From Chryseobacterium gleum (lineage in GTDB: Bacteria; Bacteroidota; Bacteroidia; UBA10329): a stretch of 64,000 bases of DNA. Positions 2,842-64,000 of the stretch are shown one piece after another (position 1 is the first letter of the stretch; each line of letters opens with the position of its first letter). The notes under the pieces are model-generated. The model saw only the letters and a list, made by a program, of their open reading frames with translations. It ran no database searches and was not told where the DNA came from. Where the stretch lies: contig CAMDOM010000001.1 in assembly GCA_945903645.1 (NCBI GenBank), positions 118,491 to 182,490 of the forward strand, read 5' to 3'. The position numbers were made by a program, and so were the translations under genes.

Positions 2842-3555
2842 ATGGCAGATGTAATTCGCACAGTAAACTTGGCAAAAGTCTATCGCATGGGCACCGAAGA
2901 GGTGCATGCCCTGCGCGACATTAGCATCACAATCAAAAAAGGGGAGTATGTGGCATTGATGGGACCTTCGGGTTCGGGCAAGTCTACCCTTATGAATATG
3001 TTGGGCTGTTTGGATACGCCATCATCAGGGCAATATTTCCTTAGTGAACAGGACGTTAGCCAGATGAACGACAATCAACTTGCGGAGGTGCGCAACAAAG
3101 AAATTGGGTTCGTTTTCCAAACCTTCAATTTATTGCCGCGCTCCACTGCGTTAGACAATGTTTGTCTTCCTCTTATTTATGCTGGCAAGGCAAAGAAAGA
3201 ACGCGTTGTACGCGGGCAGCAAGTGCTAGAGCAGGTAGGTTTGGGCGATAGAATGAGCCACCGTCCAAACGAACTTTCGGGTGGACAACGGCAGCGTGTG
3301 GCTGTAGCTCGGGCTTTGGTAAATCATCCTGCTATGTTATTAGCTGATGAGCCCACAGGAAATTTGGACTCGAAAACGTCCATCGAAATAATGGGCTTAT
3401 TCGAAGAAATTCACAGCAATGGCAACACCATTGTGGTAGTGACCCACGAAGAAGAAATTGCACAACATGCCCACCGTATTATTCGCCTAAAGGATGGATT
3501 GGTTGAAAGCGACACGTTGAACCAAAACATCACAACGGTGTTACACAAGGCATGA
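2842..3555 (+). CDS. ABC transporter ATP-binding protein (LolD/MacB-type)
   Basis: Walker [13 protein letters not shown] signature [15 protein letters not shown], Walker [12 protein letters not shown] and the H-loop. A 4-bp overlap with the next gene suggests co-transcription. Confidence 0.9.
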
Positions 3556-4100
3556 AGATTTATACGAAAACTGGCGATAATGGAACCACGGGTCTTTTTG
3601 GTGGTGCCCGTGTGCCGAAGCACCACATTCGCATCGAGAGTTATGGCACGGTTGATGAACTGAATTCCTACATCGGGCTAGTGCGTCATCGCGCCATTGA
3701 TGCGCATCACAGCACCACGCTAGGCGAAATACAAGACAGGTTGTTCACCATAGGTTCCATTCTAGCCTCCGACCCATCGAAGAATAACCTAAAAGTGCCC
3801 GATTTACATGAATCGGATGTGGCATTCTTAGAGCATGAAATAGATGGAATGAACGAGGCATTGCCCGAGATGCGGTTTTTTGTGCTTCCTGGAGGAAATG
3901 ATACCGTTGCTTTTTGTCATGTAGCCCGTTGTGTTTGTCGCAGGGCTGAGCGTTTGGCCGTTCTTCTTAATGAGAAAGAACCCATCAACCCGCTTGTAAT
4001 TATTTACCTCAATCGCCTCTCGGATTATCTCTTTGTGCTTGGCCGCAAGTTGGCGCAAGACGATAATGTTCAAGAAGTGCCTTGGAAACCTCGCCAATAG
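3552..4100 (+). CDS. ATP:cob(I)alamin adenosyltransferase, PduO-type
   Basis: N-terminus [15 protein letters not shown] is the hallmark of the PduO/MMAB adenosyltransferase family. Size is 182 aa. Confidence 0.85.
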
Positions 4101-4214
4101 GGGATTGTAGTTCCAATCTATTTTTTATTTGAGCTGGTTTATGCTATTGTATAATTTTTAGCTTTGCGCAAAATCCTAGGAGGTTACTTTTTTCCTCCGA
4201 TTAATGATTAACGC

Positions 4215-4509: not shown

Positions 4510-5529
4510 TTATTTGTTGTAAAACGAGTCGGTCAAATTCAACGCCTTCACCACTTCTTCGCGCAATTTGCTGGGCGTTACCACTTCCACTTGATTTCCA
4601 TAAGAAAGAATGGTCATGGTCAGTTCTGGAGATGGAATAACACGAATGCGAACCACAATTCCATTTTCATCTTCGGCAATAGTTTCTTGTGTGGGATGTA
4701 GCGGCTGCGAGCGCACAAACAAACCTTGTTGCTTGGCAAACCGTAGCACCACATCTTCGGCCTGACCACCAGCAGTAATCCCGAAACTATGTCGAAACAA
4801 CGTTTCCGAATCAAAATCGGACGTCACCACAAAATAGCGAGGTGCGCTATGCAGATTGTCAATCCGATCAAGACCAAAAGTGCGTGTGGCATTGCGTTCC
4901 ACATCTCTACCAATCACATACCAACGATTACGATATTCCTTCAACAGATAGGGCTCCAACACCCGTTCCGATTTCGAATCGTCTAAATAAGAATGATAGC
5001 GAAACCGCACTTCTTGCCGTTGTTTTATGGCGGAAAGCAATTCAGGAAGTAAATCTGAACCTTGCGCCACGGGCGAAGTTTCAAACTGTACATGACGTTC
5101 TACGGCCTCATCTTCCATTTCGGGAGAAATGTTCATCCGGTCAAAAATCTTCTGAATGGCCGAGCCAAAGTCTTTGAACATCGCCATATCGCGAAACTGA
5201 AACAGCGTGGTAGCCGCCAGTTTTATCGCATCTTGCTCATTATCGCTAAGGCTAATATCTTTTATGGTGTACGATCCATCTTCATAATAATAGCCTTGTT
5301 CAAGCTTCGAGTATTTGATAGGCGCGTAGTAGCCCAACTCTTCCTCGGTGCGCATAGATTTTATGTCTTTCTCTATGGTGCTGCGTGATACACGCTCGTT
5401 GCTACTGCCATAAATGGCCTCTTCGCAAGCCTGCTGCAAATCTTCAATACTAGGAAACGGTCGATATTTATTGCTGATGCAACGGTCTATAACCCTATAG
5501 CGCAGTAGCGCATATTTATTCGCTGGCAT
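4510..5529 (-). CDS. WYL-domain transcriptional regulator (YafY/PafBC-like: N-terminal HTH, WYL, C-terminal WCX-like)
   Basis: N-terminal HTH (YALLRYRVIDRCI...), a central WYL signature (LLKEYRNRWYVIGRD) and a C-terminal beta-rich extension. It is co-directional and 25 bp downstream of the desaturase gene. Confidence 0.8.
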   Translation of the reverse strand: MPANKYALLRYRVIDRCISNKYRPFPSIEDLQQACEEAIYGSSNERVSRSTIEKDIKSMRTEEELGYYAPIKYSKLEQGYYYEDGSYTIKDISLSDNEQDAIKLAATTLFQFRDMAMFKDFGSAIQKIFDRMNISPEMEDEAVERHVQFETSPVAQGSDLLPELLSAIKQRQEVRFRYHSYLDDSKSERVLEPYLLKEYRNRWYVIGRDVERNATRTFGLDRIDNLHSAPRYFVVTSDFDSETLFRHSFGITAGGQAEDVVLRFAKQQGLFVRSQPLHPTQETIAEDENGIVVRIRVIPSPELTMTILSYGNQVEVVTPSKLREEVVKALNLTDSFYNK

Positions 5530-41735: not shown

Positions 41736-41810
41736 AGCGCTTTTTTGAAGGGTTGATGGGGGCGAAGATACTACAGACCTTTCTCTACCTTCGCGCCAAA
41801 ATCTAAAAGC

Positions 41811-42785
41811 ATGACACGCGGACCAATCTCCCATTTCATTGAAGAACATTACCGACACTTCAATGCAGCAGCACTAGTAGATGCTGCTAAAGGATACGAA
41901 GCCCACCTAGCGGAAGGCGGCAAAATGATGGTTACTATGGCTGGTGCTATGAGCACAGCAGAGTTGGGTCGCTCGTTTGCTGAGATGATTCGTCAGGGCA
42001 AAGTGGACATTATCTCGTGCACAGGAGCCAACTTGGAAGAAGACCTGATGAACCTAGTGGCGCATTCGCACTACAAGCGCGTGCCGCACTACCGCGACTT
42101 GAGCCCCCAAGACGAATGGGATTTGTTGGAGCAAGGCTTTAACCGCGTAACCGATACCTGCATCCCCGAAGAAGAGGCCTTTCGCAGATTGCAGAAGCAT
42201 ATTTATGAGCTTTGGAAAGATGCCAACGCCAAAGGTGAACGCTATTTTCCGCACGAATACATGTACAAAATGTTGCTTTCGGGTGTGTTGGAACAGTACT
42301 ATGAGATTGACCCCAAGAACAGTTGGATGCTAGCCGCTGCCGAGCGCAACCTGCCGATAGTTTGCCCAGGATGGGAAGACAGCACTATGGGTAACATTTT
42401 CGCTAGCTATTGCATCAAAGGCGAATTGATTAGCACCACCATGAAAAGCGGCATCGATTATATGGTGTGGCTCACGGGCTGGTATCGCGAGAATAGCAGT
42501 GGCAAAGGCGTAGGCTTTTTCCAGATAGGTGGCGGCATTGCGGGCGATTTCCCTATTTGCGTAGTGCCTATGATGTACCAAGATTTGGAGTGGCATGATG
42601 TGCCGTTTTGGAGTTATTTCTGCCAAATTAGCGATAGCACCACCAGTTATGGTTCGTACTCAGGAGCGGTTCCCAACGAGAAAATCACGTGGGGCAAACT
42701 CGACATCCATACCCCAAAATTCATCATCGAGAGCGATGCCACCATCGTTGCCCCGCTGGTATTTGCTTGGGTGTTGAAATGGTAA
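41811..42785 (+). CDS. deoxyhypusine synthase-like protein (DHS/homospermidine synthase family)
   Basis: Size is 324 aa. The NAD-binding Rossmann-like core and conserved DHS-like blocks (…MVTMAGAMSTAELG…DIISCTGANLEEDL…) are present. Confidence 0.65.
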   Translation: MTRGPISHFIEEHYRHFNAAALVDAAKGYEAHLAEGGKMMVTMAGAMSTAELGRSFAEMIRQGKVDIISCTGANLEEDLMNLVAHSHYKRVPHYRDLSPQDEWDLLEQGFNRVTDTCIPEEEAFRRLQKHIYELWKDANAKGERYFPHEYMYKMLLSGVLEQYYEIDPKNSWMLAAAERNLPIVCPGWEDSTMGNIFASYCIKGELISTTMKSGIDYMVWLTGWYRENSSGKGVGFFQIGGGIAGDFPICVVPMMYQDLEWHDVPFWSYFCQISDSTTSYGSYSGAVPNEKITWGKLDIHTPKFIIESDATIVAPLVFAWVLKW

Positions 42786-43077
42786 TACGCTATTGTTCGC
42801 TATCAATTCGGTAGCTACTTTTGCGCACGTTCTTTGCATTCTTACTTATCCAGAAAGACGGAGGGATTAGGCCCGCTGATGTCTTGGCAACCCCAATTGT
42901 TGGAAGGTGCCAAATCCTGCTCTAAGCGAAAGCTAGGAGAGAGATAGGTTGTAGCTCCACTGTGGACTTCTAACTTGACACCATCATGCCCATCCAACAC
43001 CCATTGGAAGGGCATTTTTGTTTGGAATAAGTGATGTGTGATGCGCGAAAAATGATGTGAATCTTAATTTTTGAACA

Positions 43078-44112
43078 GTGAACAGAACAGAACTTTTACA
43101 AGACGCCCTCAGCAAACGCATCCTTGTGTTGGATGGAGCGATGGGCACCATGATACAGCGCCACACGCTAACGGAGGAGGATTTTCGTGGCGATCGGTTC
43201 AAGTGGCATTCCCATCCGCTGAAAGGCAACAATGACCTGCTTAGCATCACGCGGCCCGACATCATCAAGGGTATTCATGCTGCGTATTTTGAAGCAGGGG
43301 CCGACATTGCCGAAACCAACACGTTTAGCGGAACCACCATCGCGCAAGCAGATTATCATTTGCAAGATGCGGTGTATGACATCAACTTTCAAAGCGCTAA
43401 AATTGCCCGAGAGGTGGCCGATGAGTTCACCGCTCGCGAACCGCACAAGCCGCGCTTTGTGGCGGGCAGCATTGGCCCAACCAACCGCACGGCCAGCCTT
43501 TCGCCCGATGTGAACGACCCAGGGTTTAGAGCCGTAACCTTCAACGAGCTGAAGGATGCCTACATCTTCCAAGTGAAAGGGCTGATGGATGGTGGCGCAG
43601 ATATTCTGATGGTGGAAACCGTGTTCGATACGCTCAATGCCAAAGCCGCGCTCTTCGGCATTGAGGAATACTTCGAGCAGATTGGAAGGCGCATTCCCAT
43701 CATGGTATCGGGCACCATTACCGATGCCAGCGGGCGCACCCTAAGCGGACAGACCACCGAGGCATTCCTTATTTCCGTATCTCATATACCACTGCTTTCG
43801 GTTGGTTTGAATTGTGCTCTTGGTGCTTCTGCACTGCGCCCCTATTTGCAAGTGTTGGCCAAGAACGCCCCCTTTGCAATAAGCGCCCACCCGAATGCTG
43901 GCCTACCCAACGAATTTGGCGAGTATGATGAGACCCCAGAAATAATGGCTCCCCAAATAGAGGATTTCCTAAAAGAGAATCTCATAAACATTATCGGTGG
44001 TTGCTGTGGCACCACTCCCGACCACATTCGGGCCATTGCTAAAGTTGCGGCCAAGTACAAACCAAGGAAGAAGTCAGATATCAGTAGTCAGATGTCAGAG
44101 GCTACTGGGTAA
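43078..44112 (+). CDS. metH: methionine synthase, N-terminal homocysteine S-methyltransferase (Hcy-binding) module, encoded as a separate ORF
   Basis: Collinear with E. coli MetH residues 1 to about 340 ([11 protein letters not shown]; C-terminal Zn ligands GGCCGTTP). The ORF runs into the inserted element and stops at the TAA at 44110-12. Confidence 0.85.
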
Positions 44113-44561
44113 AAAATTAGATTTCAGATGTCAGACATTGGATGTCAGAGTAATACGTTAAGCAAATGCACCATTTAGAACAACTCAAGGTTTGGAAATT
44201 GGCGATGGAGATTGCGAAGGATGTGTATATCATCACCAAAGATTTTCCTTCTGAAGAAAAATTTGGTTTGACATCACAAGTTCGAAGGGCGGCTGTTTCT
44301 ATTGCCAGTAATATCGCAGAAGGAGCGGGCAGATATTCAGATAAGGAATTTGCCCAATTTCTTTCCATCGCATCAGGATCTTCTTTTGAAGTTAGAACTT
44401 AGCTCCTCCTTTCTGAACAACTTGGTTTTTCTTCCAATGAAAATTTAATAGATGTATTGAACAAACTTTCAGAACTAGAACTCATGATTCTAGGACTTCG
44501 TAAATCATTAAATACCCCATAATAGGCCATTTTCCAAGACCCATTTAATCTGACATCTGAT
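44088..44561. mobile_element. about 470-bp insertion in the metH interdomain linker, flanked by a 12-bp perfect inverted repeat, carrying an Avd-like gene
   Basis: tcagatgtcaga occurs at 44088-99 and 44124-35, with a partial third copy gatgtcagag at 44141-50. Its exact reverse complement tctgacatctga occurs at 44549-60. The ATG of the downstream metH ORF (44560) lies at the edge of the right repeat. Confidence 0.55.
44166..44513 (+). pseudogene. four-helix-bundle protein (23S rRNA intervening-sequence protein / Avd-like family) with an in-frame TAG
   Basis: MHHLEQLKVWKLAMEIAKDVYIITKDFPSEEKFGLTSQVRRAAVSIASNIAEGAGRY...FEVRT-[TAG at 44400-02]-QLLLSEQLGFSSNENLIDVLNKLSELELMILGLRKSLNTP. The full-length family pattern is present if TAG is read through. 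Confidence 0.65.
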
Positions 44562-47262
44562 GTCTGAAATCCATAACTCAATGTCTGAATCTAATATACC
44601 ACCATTGCAACTCTCGGGACTGGAACCTCTTCAAATCTATGAGGGGTCGAACTTCATCAACATAGGGGAGCGCACCAATGTGACCGGGTCGCGCATGTTC
44701 CTCCGTTTAATAAAGGAAGGAAAGTATGAAGACGCGCTGGTAGTGGCCCGCGACCAAGTGGAAGGAGGTGCTCAAATTTTGGACGTGAACATGGACGAGG
44801 GCATGATCGATGGCAAAGAGGCCATGGTCAAGTTCCTGCATCTTATTGCTTCAGAGCCCGATATTTCCCGCATTCCAATTATGATTGACAGCTCGAAATG
44901 GGAGATTATCGAGGCAGGGCTGCAATGTGTGCAGGGCAAGAGTGTGGTTAATTCCATCAGCCTGAAAGAAGGCGAGGAACAGTTTATCCATCACGCCAAA
45001 TTGGTCAAGCGTTATGGTGCGGCAGTAATCGTCATGGCGTTTGACGAGGCTGGTCAAGCCGATAGCTATGAGCGTAGGATAGAAATCTGTAAACGCTGCT
45101 ACGACATTTTGGTGAATGTCGTGGGCTTCCCGCGTCAGGACATAATCTTCGACCCGAACATCTTTCCTGTGGCTACGGGCATGGAGGAACACAACAACAA
45201 CGCTGTAGACTTTTTCCGCGCCACAGCTTGGATAAAGGAAAACTTGCCAGGGGCTAAAGTAAGTGGAGGCGTCAGCAATGTATCGTTCTCTTTCCGCGGC
45301 AACGACCCTGTGCGCGAGGCCATGCACTCGGCTTTCCTCTACCACGGCATCAAAGCGGGCATGGACATGGGCATCGTGAACCCGGCCATGCTCGAAGTGT
45401 ACGACCAGATTCCGAAAGAACTTTTGGAGCGGGTGGAGGATGTGCTGCTCAACCGCAGGGCCGATGCCACCGAGCGTCTGCTCGAATTTGCTGAAAGCTA
45501 CAAAGGCGTAAAGAAAGATGCCAAAGAAGACCTCGAATGGCGGTCTTTGCCCGTTCGCGAAAGATTAAGCCACGCCTTAGTGAAAGGTATTGTGGAATTT
45601 ATTGAGCCAGATGTGGAGGAATGTCGCCTGTCGATGGCCAAGCCATTGCATGTTATCGAAGGCCCGCTGATGGATGGAATGAACATCGTTGGCGACCTTT
45701 TTGGAGCAGGAAAGATGTTCCTGCCGCAAGTAGTAAAAAGTGCACGGGTGATGAAAAAGGCTGTCGCGTATCTCCTCCCATTCATGGAGCAAGATGTGGA
45801 CGGTTCGGCATCGAAGTCGGGCAAAGTGCTGATGGCCACCGTGAAGGGCGATGTGCATGACATCGGAAAGAATATCGTGGGAGTGGTGCTTGCCTGCAAT
45901 AACTACGAGGTGATTGACATGGGTGTAATGGTGCCCGCAGAGAAGATTCTTGCGGAGGCCAAGGCTCAGAATGTTGATGTCATCGGGCTTAGCGGTCTCA
46001 TCACACCTTCGTTGGACGAGATGGTGCATTTGGCAAAAGAGATGCAACGGAGTGGCTTCACCATACCATTGCTCATTGGTGGTGCAACCACTTCAAGGGT
46101 GCATACAGCGGTGAAGATTGACAGTCATTACACCAACGATCAGGCTGTGCACGTGCTCGATGCTTCGCGGGCGGTGACGGTGGTAGAAAGGCTTCTTAGT
46201 GCCGACAAGAAGGCTTATGTGGACGGCATCAAGGCCGAATATGCCCAAATGCGCGAGACCCATGCCCGCAAACAGGGCGAGAAGAACTACGTGACGCTTG
46301 CCGATGCCCGCGCCAATCGTTTCCCTATCACGTGGAAGGCTGAGGACATCCATCGCCCGAATAAACTGGGCATCACAACGATGAGCGACTTCCCGCTTGC
46401 TGAATTGGTACCCTACATCGACTGGACACCCTTCTTCCAAACGTGGGAGCTGGCTGGCCGCTATCCGCGCATCTTAGAAGATGAAGTGGTGGGAGAGGAA
46501 GCCAAACGGCTATTCGCGGATGCACAGGCGATGCTCAACAAGATTGTTTCGGAGAAATGGCTCACCGCAAATGGAGTGATTGGCCTTTGGCCCGCCAATG
46601 CCGTGGGGGATGATATGGAGGTTTATGATTCCACCGACCCGACAAAATCCATCGGTAAGTTCCATTCCCTCCGTCAACAAGGCAAGAAGGGCACGGACGT
46701 TCCGAACATCGCATTGGCCGATTATCTCGCTCCAAACGAAACGGGACTTAAGGACTATTTGGGCGGATTTGTGGTCACCACAGGCATCGGCATTGAGGAG
46801 AAGCTGACCGAGTTCGCTGCCGACCATGACGACTACAGCAGTATCATGCTCAAGGCGCTGGCCGACCGATTGGCCGAGGCATTTGCCGAGAAACTGCACG
46901 AGATTGTACGCAAGGAACTTTGGGGCTACGCTTCGGATGAGTCATTGGACAACGAGAGTCTCATCAAGGAAAAATACCGTGGCATCCGTCCCGCGCCCGG
47001 TTATCCCGCCTGTCCGGATCACACCGAGAAACCTGAGCTGTTCCGACTGCTTAATGCCACAGAGAACACGGGTGCCATCCTCACCGAATCCATGGCGATG
47101 ATGCCAGCAGCGGCTGTAAGCGGTTGGTATTTCGGGCATCCCGAATCGAAATACTTCGGCCTTGGTAAGATTACCAAAGATCAGGTGGAGGATTACGCCT
47201 GGCGCAAGGGAATGACATTGGACGAGGCAGAGCGGTGGTTGAGTCCTGCGTTGAGTTATTGA
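44560..47262 (+). CDS. metH: methionine synthase, pterin-binding + cobalamin-binding + AdoMet-activation modules, encoded as a separate ORF
   Basis: Collinear with E. coli MetH from ...RLSGLEPLNI onward (here [11 protein letters not shown]) to the C-terminus. B12-binding D-x-H-x-x-G ([11 protein letters not shown]). Reactivation domain ...[15 protein letters not shown]...VSGWYF. Confidence 0.9.
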
Positions 47263-47263
47263 G

Positions 47264-47944
47264 CTAAACTAGTCTGCGCAGTGCCTCCCGCTTAGAAAGT
47301 AAATGCATAAGCGTTTGGTTTACAAACTGTTTCACGGCCTCAGGATTGGTCTTGGCATATTCGCGAAGCGCCCAATCGATGGCCTTGTTAATGAAAAATT
47401 CCTTACTCCTCAGGTTGAGACGGACATAGTGAAACAGCAGATTTACATCCGTTTTTTCCTTGTAGCCCAATTGGCAGATGATGCTTGCCCTGCACAGCCA
47501 TATGTTATCGTGAACGGCCCATTGGTCGGTTATCTCTGCTTTGTGTTCGGGAAATTTGAGGAAATACGGCCCGCAAATCCAGGATGAAAGACCATCCACC
47601 GTGTCCCATCAACTATTGGTTACTATGAATTCTTCAATCAACGACAGGTCGCTTTCTTTGATGGAGCGGATTTGCTTTTCCATGATGTCAACGGCATTGT
47701 GGTGAAATCCACGATGAGGTGCATTCCATAATCTGCGTAGTACTTCGGGGTCGAAGGGAGTTTGCATTCCATGCTCCTTCAAAAAAGCAGATAGCAACGC
47801 TCTGCGGTGTGTGGCCTTAATGCCGAAAAAAGGAAAGTCCCATTTCATGTAAGCCTCCATGGCTTTGGCGTTCTCGGCATCTGCATGCTGTTCGAATGCT
47901 TCGCGAGGCGGGATTAGATAGGGTATAATAATACCTGTTATCAC
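47264..47944 (-). pseudogene. DNA alkylation repair protein (AlkC/AlkD HEAT-like repeat family) interrupted by an in-frame TGA
   Basis: Two adjacent 111-aa ORFs are in the same frame: ...IEEFIVTNS-[TGA at 47608-10]-WDTVDGLSSWI... The family consensus at this position is S-W-W-D-T-V-D, so TGG became TGA at a conserved Trp. Confidence 0.6.
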
Positions 47945-60637: not shown

Positions 60638-63600
60638 ATGCCTTCGAACTTCTTCGGTAAGCTATTGGGATTTTTGGCGCTTGTCATCATTTCCGCTTCT
60701 GCTTTGGCGCAGCAATGTGGAGTGATTTATATATCACCGAGCGGTGCGGCTAGTGGTGCGGCAGGCACTCGCGCTAATCCAGCTTCACTGACTTACGGAC
60801 TCAGTTTAGCATCAGGGACCAATACCATCATTTGGATGGCAAGTGGAACATATCCAATCAACACTTCCTTGCAGATACCATCTGGAGTTACCTTAGAAGG
60901 TGGTTTTAATCCAGCAACTTGGATAAAGAGTAATAGTGCGCCAAGTATTATCAGTCGGTCGCCAGCCAATGTGCTGCCAGCGCCAGCTAATGCTTTGGTG
61001 GGGTTGTTTGGTCTCAATGCTACTGGATTTCGCCTTCAAGATTTAACTATTGAAGTTGGAGATGCTACTGCTGCGGAGGTTTCTGTTTATGGCATTTATT
61101 TAACGGGTTGTTCAAGTTATGATATTGTCCGTTGTGTAATAACTACTGGCGCTGCTGGTGCTGGTTTGACTGGTCAACCGGGAGTGGCGGGAGCCCCAGG
61201 TGGCGCAGGTGGCAATGGGCAACCTGGAGCTTCTGAACCCAACTTACCACAAGGTGGAGTAGGAGGAATTAGTTCTTCAGGAAATAATGGAGGTCTGGGT
61301 CAAAATGGTGGACGCCATTCTGGTGGTACAAATCCTGGTCAAGGATTAGCTGGTCTTACTGCTAGTTGCGGAGGAGCTGGTGGTGCTACTGGTTCTGGAC
61401 CTACTAATTCGTTTTTCAATCAAACTCCAGGTTGTGGTAGTGTAACCTCTGGTCAGCCAGGGCAACTTGGTGGAAGTGGCTCTGCGGGAGCTGCAGGTGC
61501 TCTTGGAGGTGCTGGATCAATTGCTGGTGGATACTACACTGTTGGAGGAGCTGGTGGTGCTGGCTCAACGGGTGGTGCTGGTTGTGGCGGTGGCGGAGGT
61601 GGTGGCGGAGGTGGTCGACAATTAGGTGGTTCCGATGATTATGGAGCTGCTGGTGGTGGTGGTGGTGGCGGAGGTGCTGGTGGCGGTGGTGGAACTGGAG
61701 GAACTGGTGGTGGAGGTTCCTTCGCTGTATTTTTGGTAAGCAATGGCGCAGGAGGCTCAATTATCGATTGCGATTTGAATCCTGGCCCTGGTGGAGCTGG
61801 TGGAGCTGGTGGAGTAGGTGGAGCTGGAGGAGCTGGAGGTGCTAGCGGGTTGGGTGGTCCAGCAACAGCTTGTGGAAACAGCTTTGGCGGTGCAGGCGGT
61901 GCTGGTGGTGCAGGCGGTGCAGGCGGTGCTGGTGGCACTGGAGCTATTGGACCTAGCGCTGCTCTCACCGAGAATGGTGGTACTCCAATTTTTCAGCAAA
62001 ACATTACCTCAGTACCAGGCAATCCACCAGTTATTTATGTTGATAATTATGGTTGCACCGATGCTGATGTTATGTTTTCAGCCGCAGGAGGTGGAGCATG
62101 GAATTTCGGTTCGGGTGCTACGCCAGCCGCGGCAAATGGAAGTGGACCAATAGCCGTAAGCTATGCCACACTAGGACGAAAAACTGTTACATTGAATGGA
62201 ACGGTATTCACCGATTTTGTGGTCATTTTTACCAATGGACCTACAACGCCTTCTATCACACCTGACAATGGAACTGTGGATGCAGGATGCCCTAACGATT
62301 TTTCCACTTCGCTAGTTGGAACCAATTACGATTGGGATTTTGGTCCAACGGCAAATCCATCCACTGTGTCTGGAGTTAATTTGAGCGTAGTATCCGATAT
62401 ATTCTTTGGAGGCCCTGGTACATACACCATCTATGTCACAGTTACTACTCCATGTTGTGGGCCAGTAACCGATTCAACTACGGTAATAGTACAGCCCAAC
62501 AATTTTGATGTGAACCTTACGGTGAGTGCTGCTCAAATTTGCGATGGCGATGCATTTTCTGTCATGGCCGATGGAAATTATCTCAATTATGCATTTTTCT
62601 TAAACGGAGTTATTGCCCAAAACGGAGCTTCGAATGTTTATAGCTCTTCCTCACTTCAAAACGGTGATTTGATAAATGTGGAAGCCTTGGTGGGGACGTG
62701 TTTTGCCAATCCCAGTGATACTATCGAGATGATTGTGAATCCTATTCCCACTGTTGCATTGAGCTCTTCGGATGCGGATAATCAAGTATGCCATGGGGAG
62801 TTACTCACCATGACAGCTATTCCAGCGGGGTACGATAACTATGAATTTTTCAACGGAGCAAATTCCCTTCAAAGCGGGGCGAGCAATATTCTTTTTGGAA
62901 GCCTATTGCCGAATAATATCATTTCCGTTGTTGCCACTAGTTTGGGCTGTTCTAGCACTTCAAGCAATGCCATTGTTACGATTATTCATCCTATTCCATT
63001 ACCCGTGGTAACGAGTTCCGATAACAATAATTCCATTTGCGTTGGAGATAATATCACTTTCGTAGTGTTGCCACCAGGCCTAGCCGATTACGAATTTTTT
63101 GAAGGAATTGCATCAGTGCAATCGGGCGCGGGCAACACCTATTCTACTACTGCTTTGGTTGATGGTACTGTTGTAACCGTTATTGCTACTAGCGCACAAG
63201 GGTGCGTCAGTGATCCAAGCAACGCAGTAACCACAGCAGTTAATCCATATCCTAGTGTTACCATGAGCACCTCAGATGCGGATGACACGATTTGCGAAGG
63301 AGAGGAAATAACGTTTACAGCGGCACCTTCTGGCTACGATAGTTATGCCTTTTTTGATGGGGCAACTCCGGTTCAAACTGGTGCATTGGAAAATTGGATG
63401 ACTAGCGGGTTAGTTACGGGCAATAGTGTGACAGTAGTGCCTACTCATTTGGGATGCACTGGAACAGCAACTCCTGCTATTTCAATAACCATAATTCCAT
63501 CACCTGTAGTTGACCCAGGAATCGATTTCGCGCTTTGCGTAGATGCTGCGGATGTTACCCTAAGTGGGTTTACGCCAGCTACAGGCACTTGGAGTGGAAC

Positions 63601-64000
63601 TGGAATAACGAATGCGACAGGGGAGTTTTCGCCATCGGTTGCAGGTGCGGGCATACACACGCTTTCCTATGCAGTATCCAATGGCAACTGCACAACAGCT
63701 GAAACAATTGAAGCAACCGTGAATGCATTGCCACTTGTTGCAGCTAGCCCATCGCGCGCCATTTGCCTTGGCGAATCGTTAGATTTAAGTGCCGTTGGAG
63801 CCCAAACGTATGTTTGGTCACCTGCCTCTGGGCTTAGCAATCCCACAAACTCGAATTCAACAGCTACACCAACAGCCACAATTACATACACCGTTTCGGG
63901 CACCGATATAAATGGGTGCGTCAATATAGCTACAACCATCGTTACAGTTGAACCTGTTCCAACAGCTCAGTTTTCCTCCACCTCGGTATGTGTGGGTGAA
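60638..64000 (+). CDS. very large secreted adhesin-like protein (partial; continues past window end): beta-helix N-domain, Gly-rich tract, PKD-like and about 80-aa Cys-containing Ig-like repeats
   Basis: Signal peptide, and a parallel beta-helix-type N-terminus (YISPSGAASGAAGTRANPASLTYGLSLASGTNTIIWMASGTYPI). A roughly 270-aa Gly/Ala tract (GGAGGAGG...). A PKD-like YDWDFGP. At least 5 repeats of N-P-x-P-x-V...C-x-G-E...F-x-A-x-P-x-GYD-x-Y-x-FF-x-G. No stop before position 64000, so absent from the ORF track. Confidence 0.7.
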   Translation, partial: MPSNFFGKLLGFLALVIISASALAQQCGVIYISPSGAASGAAGTRANPASLTYGLSLASGTNTIIWMASGTYPINTSLQIPSGVTLEGGFNPATWIKSNSAPSIISRSPANVLPAPANALVGLFGLNATGFRLQDLTIEVGDATAAEVSVYGIYLTGCSSYDIVRCVITTGAAGAGLTGQPGVAGAPGGAGGNGQPGASEPNLPQGGVGGISSSGNNGGLGQNGGRHSGGTNPGQGLAGLTASCGGAGGATGSGPTNSFFNQTPGCGSVTSGQPGQLGGSGSAGAAGALGGAGSIAGGYYTVGGAGGAGSTGGAGCGGGGGGGGGGRQLGGSDDYGAAGGGGGGGGAGGGGGTGGTGGGGSFAVFLVSNGAGGSIIDCDLNPGPGGAGGAGGVGGAGGAGGASGLGGPATACGNSFGGAGGAGGAGGAGGAGGTGAIGPSAALTENGGTPIFQQNITSVPGNPPVIYVDNYGCTDADVMFSAAGGGAWNFGSGATPAAANGSGPIAVSYATLGRKTVTLNGTVFTDFVVIFTNGPTTPSITPDNGTVDAGCPNDFSTSLVGTNYDWDFGPTANPSTVSGVNLSVVSDIFFGGPGTYTIYVTVTTPCCGPVTDSTTVIVQPNNFDVNLTVSAAQICDGDAFSVMADGNYLNYAFFLNGVIAQNGASNVYSSSSLQNGDLINVEALVGTCFANPSDTIEMIVNPIPTVALSSSDADNQVCHGELLTMTAIPAGYDNYEFFNGANSLQSGASNILFGSLLPNNIISVVATSLGCSSTSSNAIVTIIHPIPLPVVTSSDNNNSICVGDNITFVVLPPGLADYEFFEGIASVQSGAGNTYSTTALVDGTVVTVIATSAQGCVSDPSNAVTTAVNPYPSVTMSTSDADDTICEGEEITFTAAPSGYDSYAFFDGATPVQTGALENWMTSGLVTGNSVTVVPTHLGCTGTATPAISITIIPSPVVDPGIDFALCVDAADVTLSGFTPATGTWSGTGITNATGEFSPSVAGAGIHTLSYAVSNGNCTTAETIEATVNALPLVAASPSRAICLGESLDLSAVGAQTYVWSPASGLSNPTNSNSTATPTATITYTVSGTDINGCVNIATTIVTVEPVPTAQFSSTSVCVGE
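61150..61960. repeat. degenerate trinucleotide (GGT/GGA/GCT/GGC) repeat tract encoding the Gly/Ala-rich segment
   Basis: Long runs such as ggtggtgctggtgg, ggtggcggaggtggtggcggaggtgg and gctggtggagctggtggagtaggtggagctggaggagctggagg. These produce the spurious antisense Pro/Ala-rich ORFs (61639..61968 and 61416..61760). Confidence 0.8.

Follow-up and report, generated by a model that had tools for sequence, protein, structure and literature searches.

Intervening sequences (IVSs) that carry an S23p open reading frame (ORF) are found in the 23S rRNA of Coxiella burnetii, and also of Leptospira, Xanthomonas and Brucella. In the Coxiella IVS, the S23p ORF, a member of the PF05635 family, is enclosed by a 28-bp terminal inverted-repeat stem, which RNase III cleaves in vitro. 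Immediately upstream of this ORF stand 3 to 4 tandem units of the heptamer GACAGAT, a number that varies (PMC4990558). Where rRNA IVSs come from, how they spread and what they do have been open questions for about 30 years (PMC4990558). Here, we describe a locus in a 64,000-nucleotide stretch of Chryseobacterium gleum DNA (contig CAMDOM010000001.1, positions 118,491 to 182,490; this whole stretch is hereafter the window) at which a PF05635 gene lies between the 2 halves of a split methionine synthase gene, metH. We think it probable that this locus is an IVS-like intercistronic cassette of a polycistronic mRNA, in which arms on both sides of the gene would pair, and that the window holds a now inactivated copy of it.

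Tandem heptamers have also been described outside IVSs. TAACTGA arrays stand 5' of start codons in Beggiatoaceae, Cyanobacteria and a few Bacteroidetes (PMC4679880), while the GGGAATC arrays of Xanthomonas form 70-75 convergent (inverted) pairs per genome (PMC4692102). Neither of these 2 papers links the arrays to PF05635 genes or to the GxxExxY genes reported below, or reports an inverted pair with a gene inside it.

A PF05635 gene bracketed by inverted heptamer arrays

The following features make up the locus, where L numbers designate the related loci used for comparison:

43078-44112, forward strand: metH-N, the half of the split metH that encodes the homocysteine-binding (Hcy) domain (PF02574, E 1e-98, over profile positions 1-282 of 283)
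44068-44595, forward strand: block exchanged for 40 nt (gttatggaaactgttgccgccTAATGagtttagagatgaaa) in the relative L187, from the pairwise alignment of the window with L187
44074-44101, forward strand: left array A, 4 units TCAGATA TCAGTAG TCAGATG TCAGAGG (TCAGAnn), inside the 3' end of metH-N
44117-44151, forward strand: left array B, 5 units TTAGATT TCAGATG TCAGACA TTGGATG TCAGAGT, located after the metH-N stop and before the PF05635 start
44166-44522, forward strand: PF05635/TIGR02436 four-helix-bundle gene of 118 codons, with an in-frame TAG at 44400-44402
44549-44590, forward strand: right array, 6 in-phase units TCTGACA TCTGATG TCTGAAA TCCATAA CTCAATG TCTGAAT (TCTGAnn)
44560-47262, forward strand: metH-C, with the pterin-binding, B12-cap, B12-binding and activation domains (PF00809, PF02607, PF02310 and PF02965, all with strong E-values)

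The data directly support a promoterless PF05635 gene, co-directional with and lying between 2 co-transcribed host genes that are the halves of an anciently split metH, as well as an arrangement of the arrays in which the 5' side is G-rich and the 3' side, directly before the next host start, is its C-rich reverse complement. The gene matches PF05635 with an E-value of 1.3e-38 and 131.9 bits (cut-off 33.8) over profile positions 1-104 of 106, and TIGR02436 with 126.2 bits (cut-off 24), both scores having been computed with the TAG translated as Gln. An earlier note on this DNA, made from the sequence alone, had assigned the gene to the 23S-rRNA-IVS/Avd-like four-helix-bundle family, and the 2 matches above cut-off bear this out. 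At the sequence level, the nearest solved relative is PDB 2GSC_A (XCC0516; E 2e-23, residues 5-98), whose structure is a four-helix-bundle pentamer. No other PF05635 gene was found in the window.

The same note had drawn attention to a 12-mer with perfect inverted copies. We recovered exact copies of TCAGATGTCAGA at 44088-44099 and 44124-44135 and its reverse complement at 44549-44560, together with the partial third copy (ggatgtcaga), which runs from 44140 to 44149, one base away from the 44141-44150 given before. These 12-mers are segments of 7-nt periodic arrays and not isolated termini. Exact copies of TCAGATGTCAGA occur nowhere else in the 64 kb, and all 9 matches with at most 2 mismatches fall within 44074-44567. 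The units of the right array are the reverse complement of the left units, and 2 of its 6 units are degenerate. Both candidate start codons of metH-C (44560 and 44581) lie within this array, the second ATG being the one from which metH-C is called in the relative L083 (893 aa). On the other side, array A and the bases that follow it encode the last 13 codons of metH-N, a gene whose ratio of nonsynonymous to synonymous substitution rates (dN/dS) against its orthologues is 0.03-0.06.

The likeness to the Coxiella IVS extends to several traits. In both cases, a unit of about 0.4-0.5 kb carries an ORF of the PF05635 family that reads in the sense of an essential, highly transcribed host RNA, a stem of terminal inverted repeats (a predicted one in the window) surrounds this ORF, and heptamers stand 5' of it, GACAGAT in Coxiella and TCAGATG in the window or, in another register, CAGATGA and CAGATGT. 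Further shared traits are a host product that is physically split and still functional, and an ORF that is decaying in some strains (PMC4990558). The location differs, since the window cassette sits between metH-N and metH-C and not in helix 9, 25 or 45 of 23S rRNA; 23S rRNA signatures are absent from all 185 related loci (L003-L185 together with L001-L002, both from the contig of the window itself), and the region 43900-44750 contains no Rfam family at E <= 1. The 2 systems also differ in that the gene has long been under purifying selection in the window lineage, whereas the Coxiella ORF is thought to be unexpressed.

The arrays of the window share with the TAACTGA and GGGAATC arrays their 7-nt tandem units in co-directional spacers, their frequent position directly 5' of a start codon and their variable copy number. 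The right array has the properties of the TAACTGA type (tandem, forward, G-poor and placed at the metH-C start) with TCTGAnn in place of TAACTGA as the unit, and TCTGATG resembles ACTGATA. Unlike the TAACTGA and GGGAATC units, which are genome-wide, units of the window type are locus-specific.

The metH split is older than the cassette

The earlier note had proposed that the insertion of the cassette split metH, a view that the comparison of 80 metH loci from other species, sorted by junction type, does not sustain. In distant relatives metH is fused, the aligned blocks being separated by 21-39 nt (90 nt in L063) that stay in frame and contain no stop, while most of the closer Cytophagales and Flavobacteriales have 2 metH genes with either a short spacer (16-100 nt) or an overlapping stop and start. 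Spacers of 16-100 nt that include stop and start codons are present in about 25 relatives. The most direct comparison is provided by L187, whose MetH-N is 95-96% identical to that of the window and whose flanking DNA is 86-87% identical, and in which the cassette is absent and the metH halves abut in an overlapping junction (...gccTAATGagt...). Because metH is split in L187 without a cassette, the split is older than the cassette and independent of it.

In the alignment with L187, the 528-nt block of the window stands against 40 unrelated nt in a hypervariable linker, and no duplication is recognisable. The block holds the arrays of both sides, the PF05635 gene, the tail and stop codon of metH-N and the start of metH-C. 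On the forward strand, no terminator-like site was found between metH-N and metH-C. In another relative, L186 (GCA_964500205.1; metH-N at 3001-4125, 92% identical), the next gene is a tetratricopeptide-repeat gene on the opposite strand and the metH halves are unlinked.

An inherited gene, recently inactivated in the window

PF05635 proteins 96%, 88% and 72% identical to the window protein are all encoded in the metH-N|metH-C gap, at MetH-N identities of 98.8, 86.7 and 81.2%, and residence in this gap spans protein identities from 98% down to 72%. In all these orthologues the left side retains arrays of TCAGAnn and the right side arrays of TCTGAnn, which differ in the number of units and in the 2 variable bases. 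In L089 and L094 there is a single left array, located within the coding end of metH-N, and in L094 the metH-N TAA abuts the ATG of the cassette gene while the metH-C ATG is inside the right array. The long-range dN/dS of the cassette gene is 0.08-0.10, with synonymous sites saturated. These values indicate that the gene has been functional in this lineage and inherited together with metH under purifying selection.

The window copy itself is a pseudogene, recently lost by a nonsense mutation. The earlier note had placed the gene at 44166..44513; its start stands, but the frame ends at 44522, and the in-frame TAG had been overlooked. This TAG is a CAG to TAG change at a conserved Gln, which is present in the intact orthologues. 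Those with 95-98% identity are intact at 118 aa, and the orthologues as a whole measure 116-118 aa, whereas the product of the window is shortened to 78 aa, outside the range of about 115-125 aa expected of an intact family member; the 78-aa version is recorded on 2 contigs. Stop-codon reassignment was ruled out as an explanation: both TAG and TGA serve as normal stops in this genome, TAG closing 10 of the 42 ordinary ORFs, and another nonsense codon nearby is a TGA. The latter interrupts a DNA-alkylation repair gene (PF08713) on the reverse strand at 47264-47944, where TGG has become an in-frame TGA at 47609-47611 (...VTNS*WDTVD) within 3.2 kb of the cassette TAG; the orthologue in L083 is called as a single gene of 221 aa. 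The 2 neighbouring nonsense changes reflect either local genome decay or assembly errors.

Between the window and L083, the proportion of synonymous differences (pS) is 0.08 in the cassette gene against 0.32 in metH-N, a difference that at first suggested recent transfer of the cassette, but a sliding-window comparison reveals a mosaic locus in which other stretches are equally similar. Over 41780-47470, DNA identity to L083 (98.8% in MetH-N) varies between 0.77 and 0.98 in 150-nt windows, with the cassette gene among the most similar stretches (0.96-0.97) and the metH-C start among the least (0.77-0.81). This mosaic pattern suggests frequent homologous recombination in the population.

Turnover at metH junctions

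Among relatives at a MetH-N divergence similar to that of L094, the metH gap has varied contents. In L007 (MetH-N 80.6%) it holds a PF05635 gene of 45% identity whose arms are TGGCTAC (8 units) and GCCAnnn; L011, L025, L031 and L045 contain a separate PF05635 subfamily with arms of the GTCGAnn type; and L033 has a very divergent PF05635 gene. In L003 (3459-3830), L058 (6074-6460) and L082 (4815-5189), the gap is occupied by GxxExxY genes (TIGR04256, PD-(D/E)XK-like), whose arms are inverted heptamer arrays, CACAAAG/CTTTGTG or CACAGAG/CTCTGTG. As the GxxExxY genes are bracketed by inverted heptamer arrays, they represent a second, unrelated small-protein family with an identical cassette layout. 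The gap of L010 contains heptamer arrays only, and those of L008 and L013 contain nothing. Together with the empty junction of L187, these comparisons directly support loss or replacement of the cassette in close relatives.

The metH|metF junction also harbours PF05635 genes, with arms GTGTTTA/TAAACAC in L004 and GTGTTGA/TCAACAC in L009. In the orthologous pairs L004/L009 and L104/L105 both arms are altered and their complementarity is kept. All 13 metH-linked cassettes are co-directional with both neighbours.

Other inserts were noticed in metH gaps. L035 (6192-6632) and L049 (5989-6426), which belong to Flavobacteriales/Flammeovirgaceae metagenome-assembled genomes, carry a QueF-II-like gene (TIGR03139, 84.5 bits, just below the 86.9 cut-off) that might be a functional partner or else an insert of a different kind. 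In L005 (5987-7319) there is a 355-aa ORF with no NCBIfam match, flanked by copies of the palindrome TTTGGCAGACAGTGTCTGCCAAA, which stands alone in the gap of L020 (5975-6077), and the gaps of L026 and L036 contain GC-rich palindromes resembling repetitive extragenic palindromic (REP) elements. Taken as a set, these loci mark the metH junction as a general hot spot for small insertions.

A heptamer array without an enclosed gene is also present in the window itself, at 2793-2830 (ACCTCGA ACTTTGA ACCTCGA ACCTTAA ACGTTGA), with a methyltransferase gene (2003-2785) on one side and an ATP-binding cassette (ABC) ATPase gene (2842-3555) on the other. It resembles the array-only metH spacer of L010.

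Related cassettes at other operon junctions

The next-closest homologues (56-61% identity) lie at murE|mraY|murD, atpD|atpC and thiolase|acyl-CoA dehydrogenase (ACAD) junctions, each with heptamer arrays around it. A metagenome scan provided 80 further PF05635 loci, of which the 76 with enough flank were analysed. Lag 7 was the best autocorrelation lag in 62/76 upstream and 70/76 downstream flanks (82-92%), compared with 30/79 control flanks. The neighbours were co-directional in 69/71 and 66/70 cases (about 96%), with median spacers of 67 and 48 nt. When each upstream flank was compared with the reverse complement of its own downstream flank, a score of at least 30 was reached in 45/76 loci, against 12% of cross-locus pairs. 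The neighbour proteins, identified by clustering and a Pfam scan of representatives, define fadJ|thiolase (24), thiolase|ACAD (8), sdhA|sdhB (6), sucA|sucB (3) and nrdB|nrdA (2) as host junctions, in addition to atpD|atpC, mraY|murD and metH|metF, so the junctions are mostly between subunit or pathway genes. Among cultured bacteria, Pontibacter flavimaris (LVWA01000004) and Adhaeribacter rhizoryzae (VWSF01000012) carry a cassette at thiolase|ACAD, and Ekhidna and Chryseolinea sp. H1M3-3 carry one at metH.

Different operons contain PF05635 proteins that are as much as 81.5% identical, and arm type tracks the relatedness of the gene across operon contexts (rho 0.28, p 2e-23), a correlation that fits gene and arms moving together. 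The proposal of the earlier note that the gene rides on a small mobile or selfish element keeps one part and loses another: a recurrent unit that is gained and lost agrees with the data, and a DNA transposon with conserved ends does not. The recurrence of the unit, the reoccupied metH gap, the empty junction of L187 and the occurrence of PF05635 proteins 80% identical in different operons are all compatible with a cassette that is selfish or hitchhiking and that comes and goes in the course of evolution. Two different PF05635 cassettes were observed in the dcw cluster of L099, at 799-1173 (murE|mraY) and 2501-2860 (mraY|murD), with units GAATTTT and TTAGATn, respectively, so arm units are not uniform within one genome.

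A predicted arm-arm helix with strand polarity

Folding of the window locus gave a minimum free energy of -144.1 kcal/mol (z = -3.8), and none of 100 shuffled sequences was as stable. A long-range helix is predicted between 44108-44150 and 44545-44600; it loops out the ORF, has the metH-N stop at its base, draws its 5' arm from array B and its 3' arm from the right array, and contains both candidate metH-C starts in the latter. A helix between the arms, 19-66 pairs long, was predicted in 15/15 folded cassettes despite unrelated arm sequences; together with the 45 high-scoring metagenome loci, this answers positively whether other Avd-like genes also carry inverted flanking repeats, as the earlier note had supposed. 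The arrays are polarised with respect to the strand, with C exceeding G in the right arrays of 54/55 loci and G exceeding C in the left arrays of 46/53. Polarity this strict with respect to transcription argues for a constraint that acts on the transcript or on translation.

Proposed mechanism and alternative explanations

If the locus is an IVS-like cassette of the mRNA, the arrays would pair in the polycistronic transcript into a stem of about 35-45 bp, which would loop out the ORF, bring the metH-N stop beside the metH-C start and bury the latter. From there, by analogy with the Coxiella 23S rRNA IVS, 2 branches can be envisaged: RNase III may cut the stem, excising the cassette RNA and freeing the downstream leader, or ribosomes finishing the upstream gene may melt the stem. 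By either branch the downstream host gene would still be expressed despite a 0.5-kb insert. The RNA-level function of the arms and the stem is an inference.

Several observations weigh against this proposal, and some of them speak for a process confined to DNA, in which the cassette would be a neutral or selfish hitchhiker with no RNA role, its arms arising by replication slippage of the 7-nt units together with template switching or gene conversion, and concerted evolution maintaining their complementarity. Mismatches in the arms, which make up about 15% of the aligned positions, show no excess of sense-strand G.U over A.C (38 vs 57), so selection on a sense RNA helix is not demonstrated, and this lack of a wobble bias counts in favour of the DNA-level process. 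Array copy number differs between orthologues. Since 38% of the control flanks share the 7-nt periodicity, heptamer arrays are not exclusive to cassettes, and they also occupy cassette-free spacers (those at 2793-2830 of the window and in L010); heptamer simple sequence repeats and paired inverted heptamer arrays are, moreover, known in other phyla (PMC4679880, PMC4692102). In 6-12 of the 76 loci and in L103 the arrays are direct, not inverted, and such loci are therefore unable to form a stem, and the correlation of arm type with gene could equally reflect lineage-specific repeat preferences instead of co-mobility. We nevertheless consider an exclusively DNA-level origin unlikely, because the strand polarity is hard to explain without a transcript or translation constraint, complementarity persists through sequence change in the orthologous pairs, and the Coxiella IVS, with the same layout, is experimentally processed. 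The arrays could also be translation-control elements of the host, G-poor heptamer leaders of the TAACTGA type that are bound by a regulator, with the PF05635 gene simply lying between 2 of them, the inverted left array serving as an anti-leader that tunes the downstream gene and with no excision. The right arrays are indeed G-poor, immediately 5' of start codons and of the form WCTNANN, as in TAACTGA (=ACTGATA), and in the direct-array class leaders of this kind are present on either side. We judge this quite improbable in view of the cassette-free junction of L187, which has no array, so the arrays came and went with the gene at the metH junction, and of the arm type, which follows the gene across contexts; in addition, this explanation overlaps with the ribosome-melting branch described above and does not exclude it.

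A miniature DNA transposon that carried an Avd-like gene into metH between 12-bp perfect terminal inverted repeats, and split it, was the explanation to which the 12-mers first gave rise. It would account for the perfect inverted pair, for the presence/absence difference with L187 and for related PF05635 genes in different operons, and the cassette does share with MITEs (miniature transposable elements with inverted repeats) and other small transposons its short length, its inverted termini and its patchy presence among relatives. The arms, however, are locus-specific tandem 7-nt arrays whose copy number varies between orthologues, not the ends of a transposon; the right arm includes a host start codon; the 12-mer has no other copy in the 64 kb; metH is already split in L187 and many other relatives; and the cassette has been resident at the metH site down to 72% protein identity, a long orthologous residence that, like its co-direction with the host operon in about 96% of loci, sets it apart from MITEs. 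As the earlier note had stated, the window has neither a reverse transcriptase nor a transposase, at least among the 43 long ORFs (of 44) for which Pfam data were available, a set without the ORF at 60638-64000 and without the shorter ones. A transposon of this kind is thus very improbable, and its classical or MITE form was rejected on the unconserved arms, the lack of a transposase among the scanned ORFs of the window and the absence of a recognisable target-site duplication. The remnant of a diversity-generating retroelement (DGR), an Avd gene that lost its reverse transcriptase, seems to us scarcely credible. PF05635 is the family of the DGR Avd (PMC10053308), bAvd shares a homologous four-helix-bundle fold (2GSC-4DWL homology; PMC10053308), and faint or weak matches to PF22296 (bAvd) are recorded for orthologues, but no RVT-family reverse transcriptase, target gene or pair of template and variable repeats accompanies the gene. 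At a length of 40 nt or more, the window contains a single repeat, which is coding and Gly-rich and lies at 61.3-61.9 kb, the orthologues reside in the metH gap without DGR parts, and dozens of relatives occupy housekeeping operons; for this locus, the lack of a reverse transcriptase among the scanned ORFs and of a template/variable repeat pair in the window effectively rules a DGR out. Phase-variable inversion between the arms was considered too and is unlikely, given that the genes are co-directional in about 96% of loci and in 13/13 metH-linked cassettes.

Two further features of the window were recorded. The Gly-rich repeat (61343-61951) has 9- and 27-nt periods and belongs to an ORF (60638-64000) that is cut by the end of the window. 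On the reverse strand, 4510-5529 encodes a WYL-WCX domain regulator, alongside which no defence genes were recognised in the ORFs scanned; PADLOC returned no match to defence systems.

Implications

The cassette class looks widespread in Bacteroidota housekeeping operons, with an architecture common to the rRNA IVSs. The type is apparently undescribed, as we found no account of PF05635 or GxxExxY operon-junction cassettes with inverted heptamer arms in the literature searched, whose coverage was partial, so that an earlier description may exist. A broader and more tentative idea, which we regard as possible though doubtful, is that PF05635 and GxxExxY/TIGR04256 genes in inverted heptamer arrays constitute an unrecognised IVS-type selfish class that colonises not only 23S rRNA but also the junctions between subunit genes in operons that are essential and highly transcribed, being tolerated through stem-guided transcript processing or translational re-coupling.

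For annotation, the cassettes explain the presence of such genes inside the operons of split or multi-subunit enzymes and warn against blaming them for gene fission. Unoccupied sites, series of orthologues and the independent re-occupation of a single junction offer a comparative and experimental handle on how 0.5-kb inserts are tolerated between coupled subunit genes, on the role of the heptamer arrays and on selfishness. The value of the locus lies mainly in what the class could reveal and less in the decaying copy of the window. The stand-alone 'four helix bundle' genes are very abundant, and their origin, spread and function are, as for the rRNA IVSs, a long-standing question. If the broader idea is true, rRNA IVSs would be one habitat of a much larger family of elements, and their origin and spread would become testable in protein-coding operons, possibly including a role for the Avd-like protein in the propagation of the cassette.

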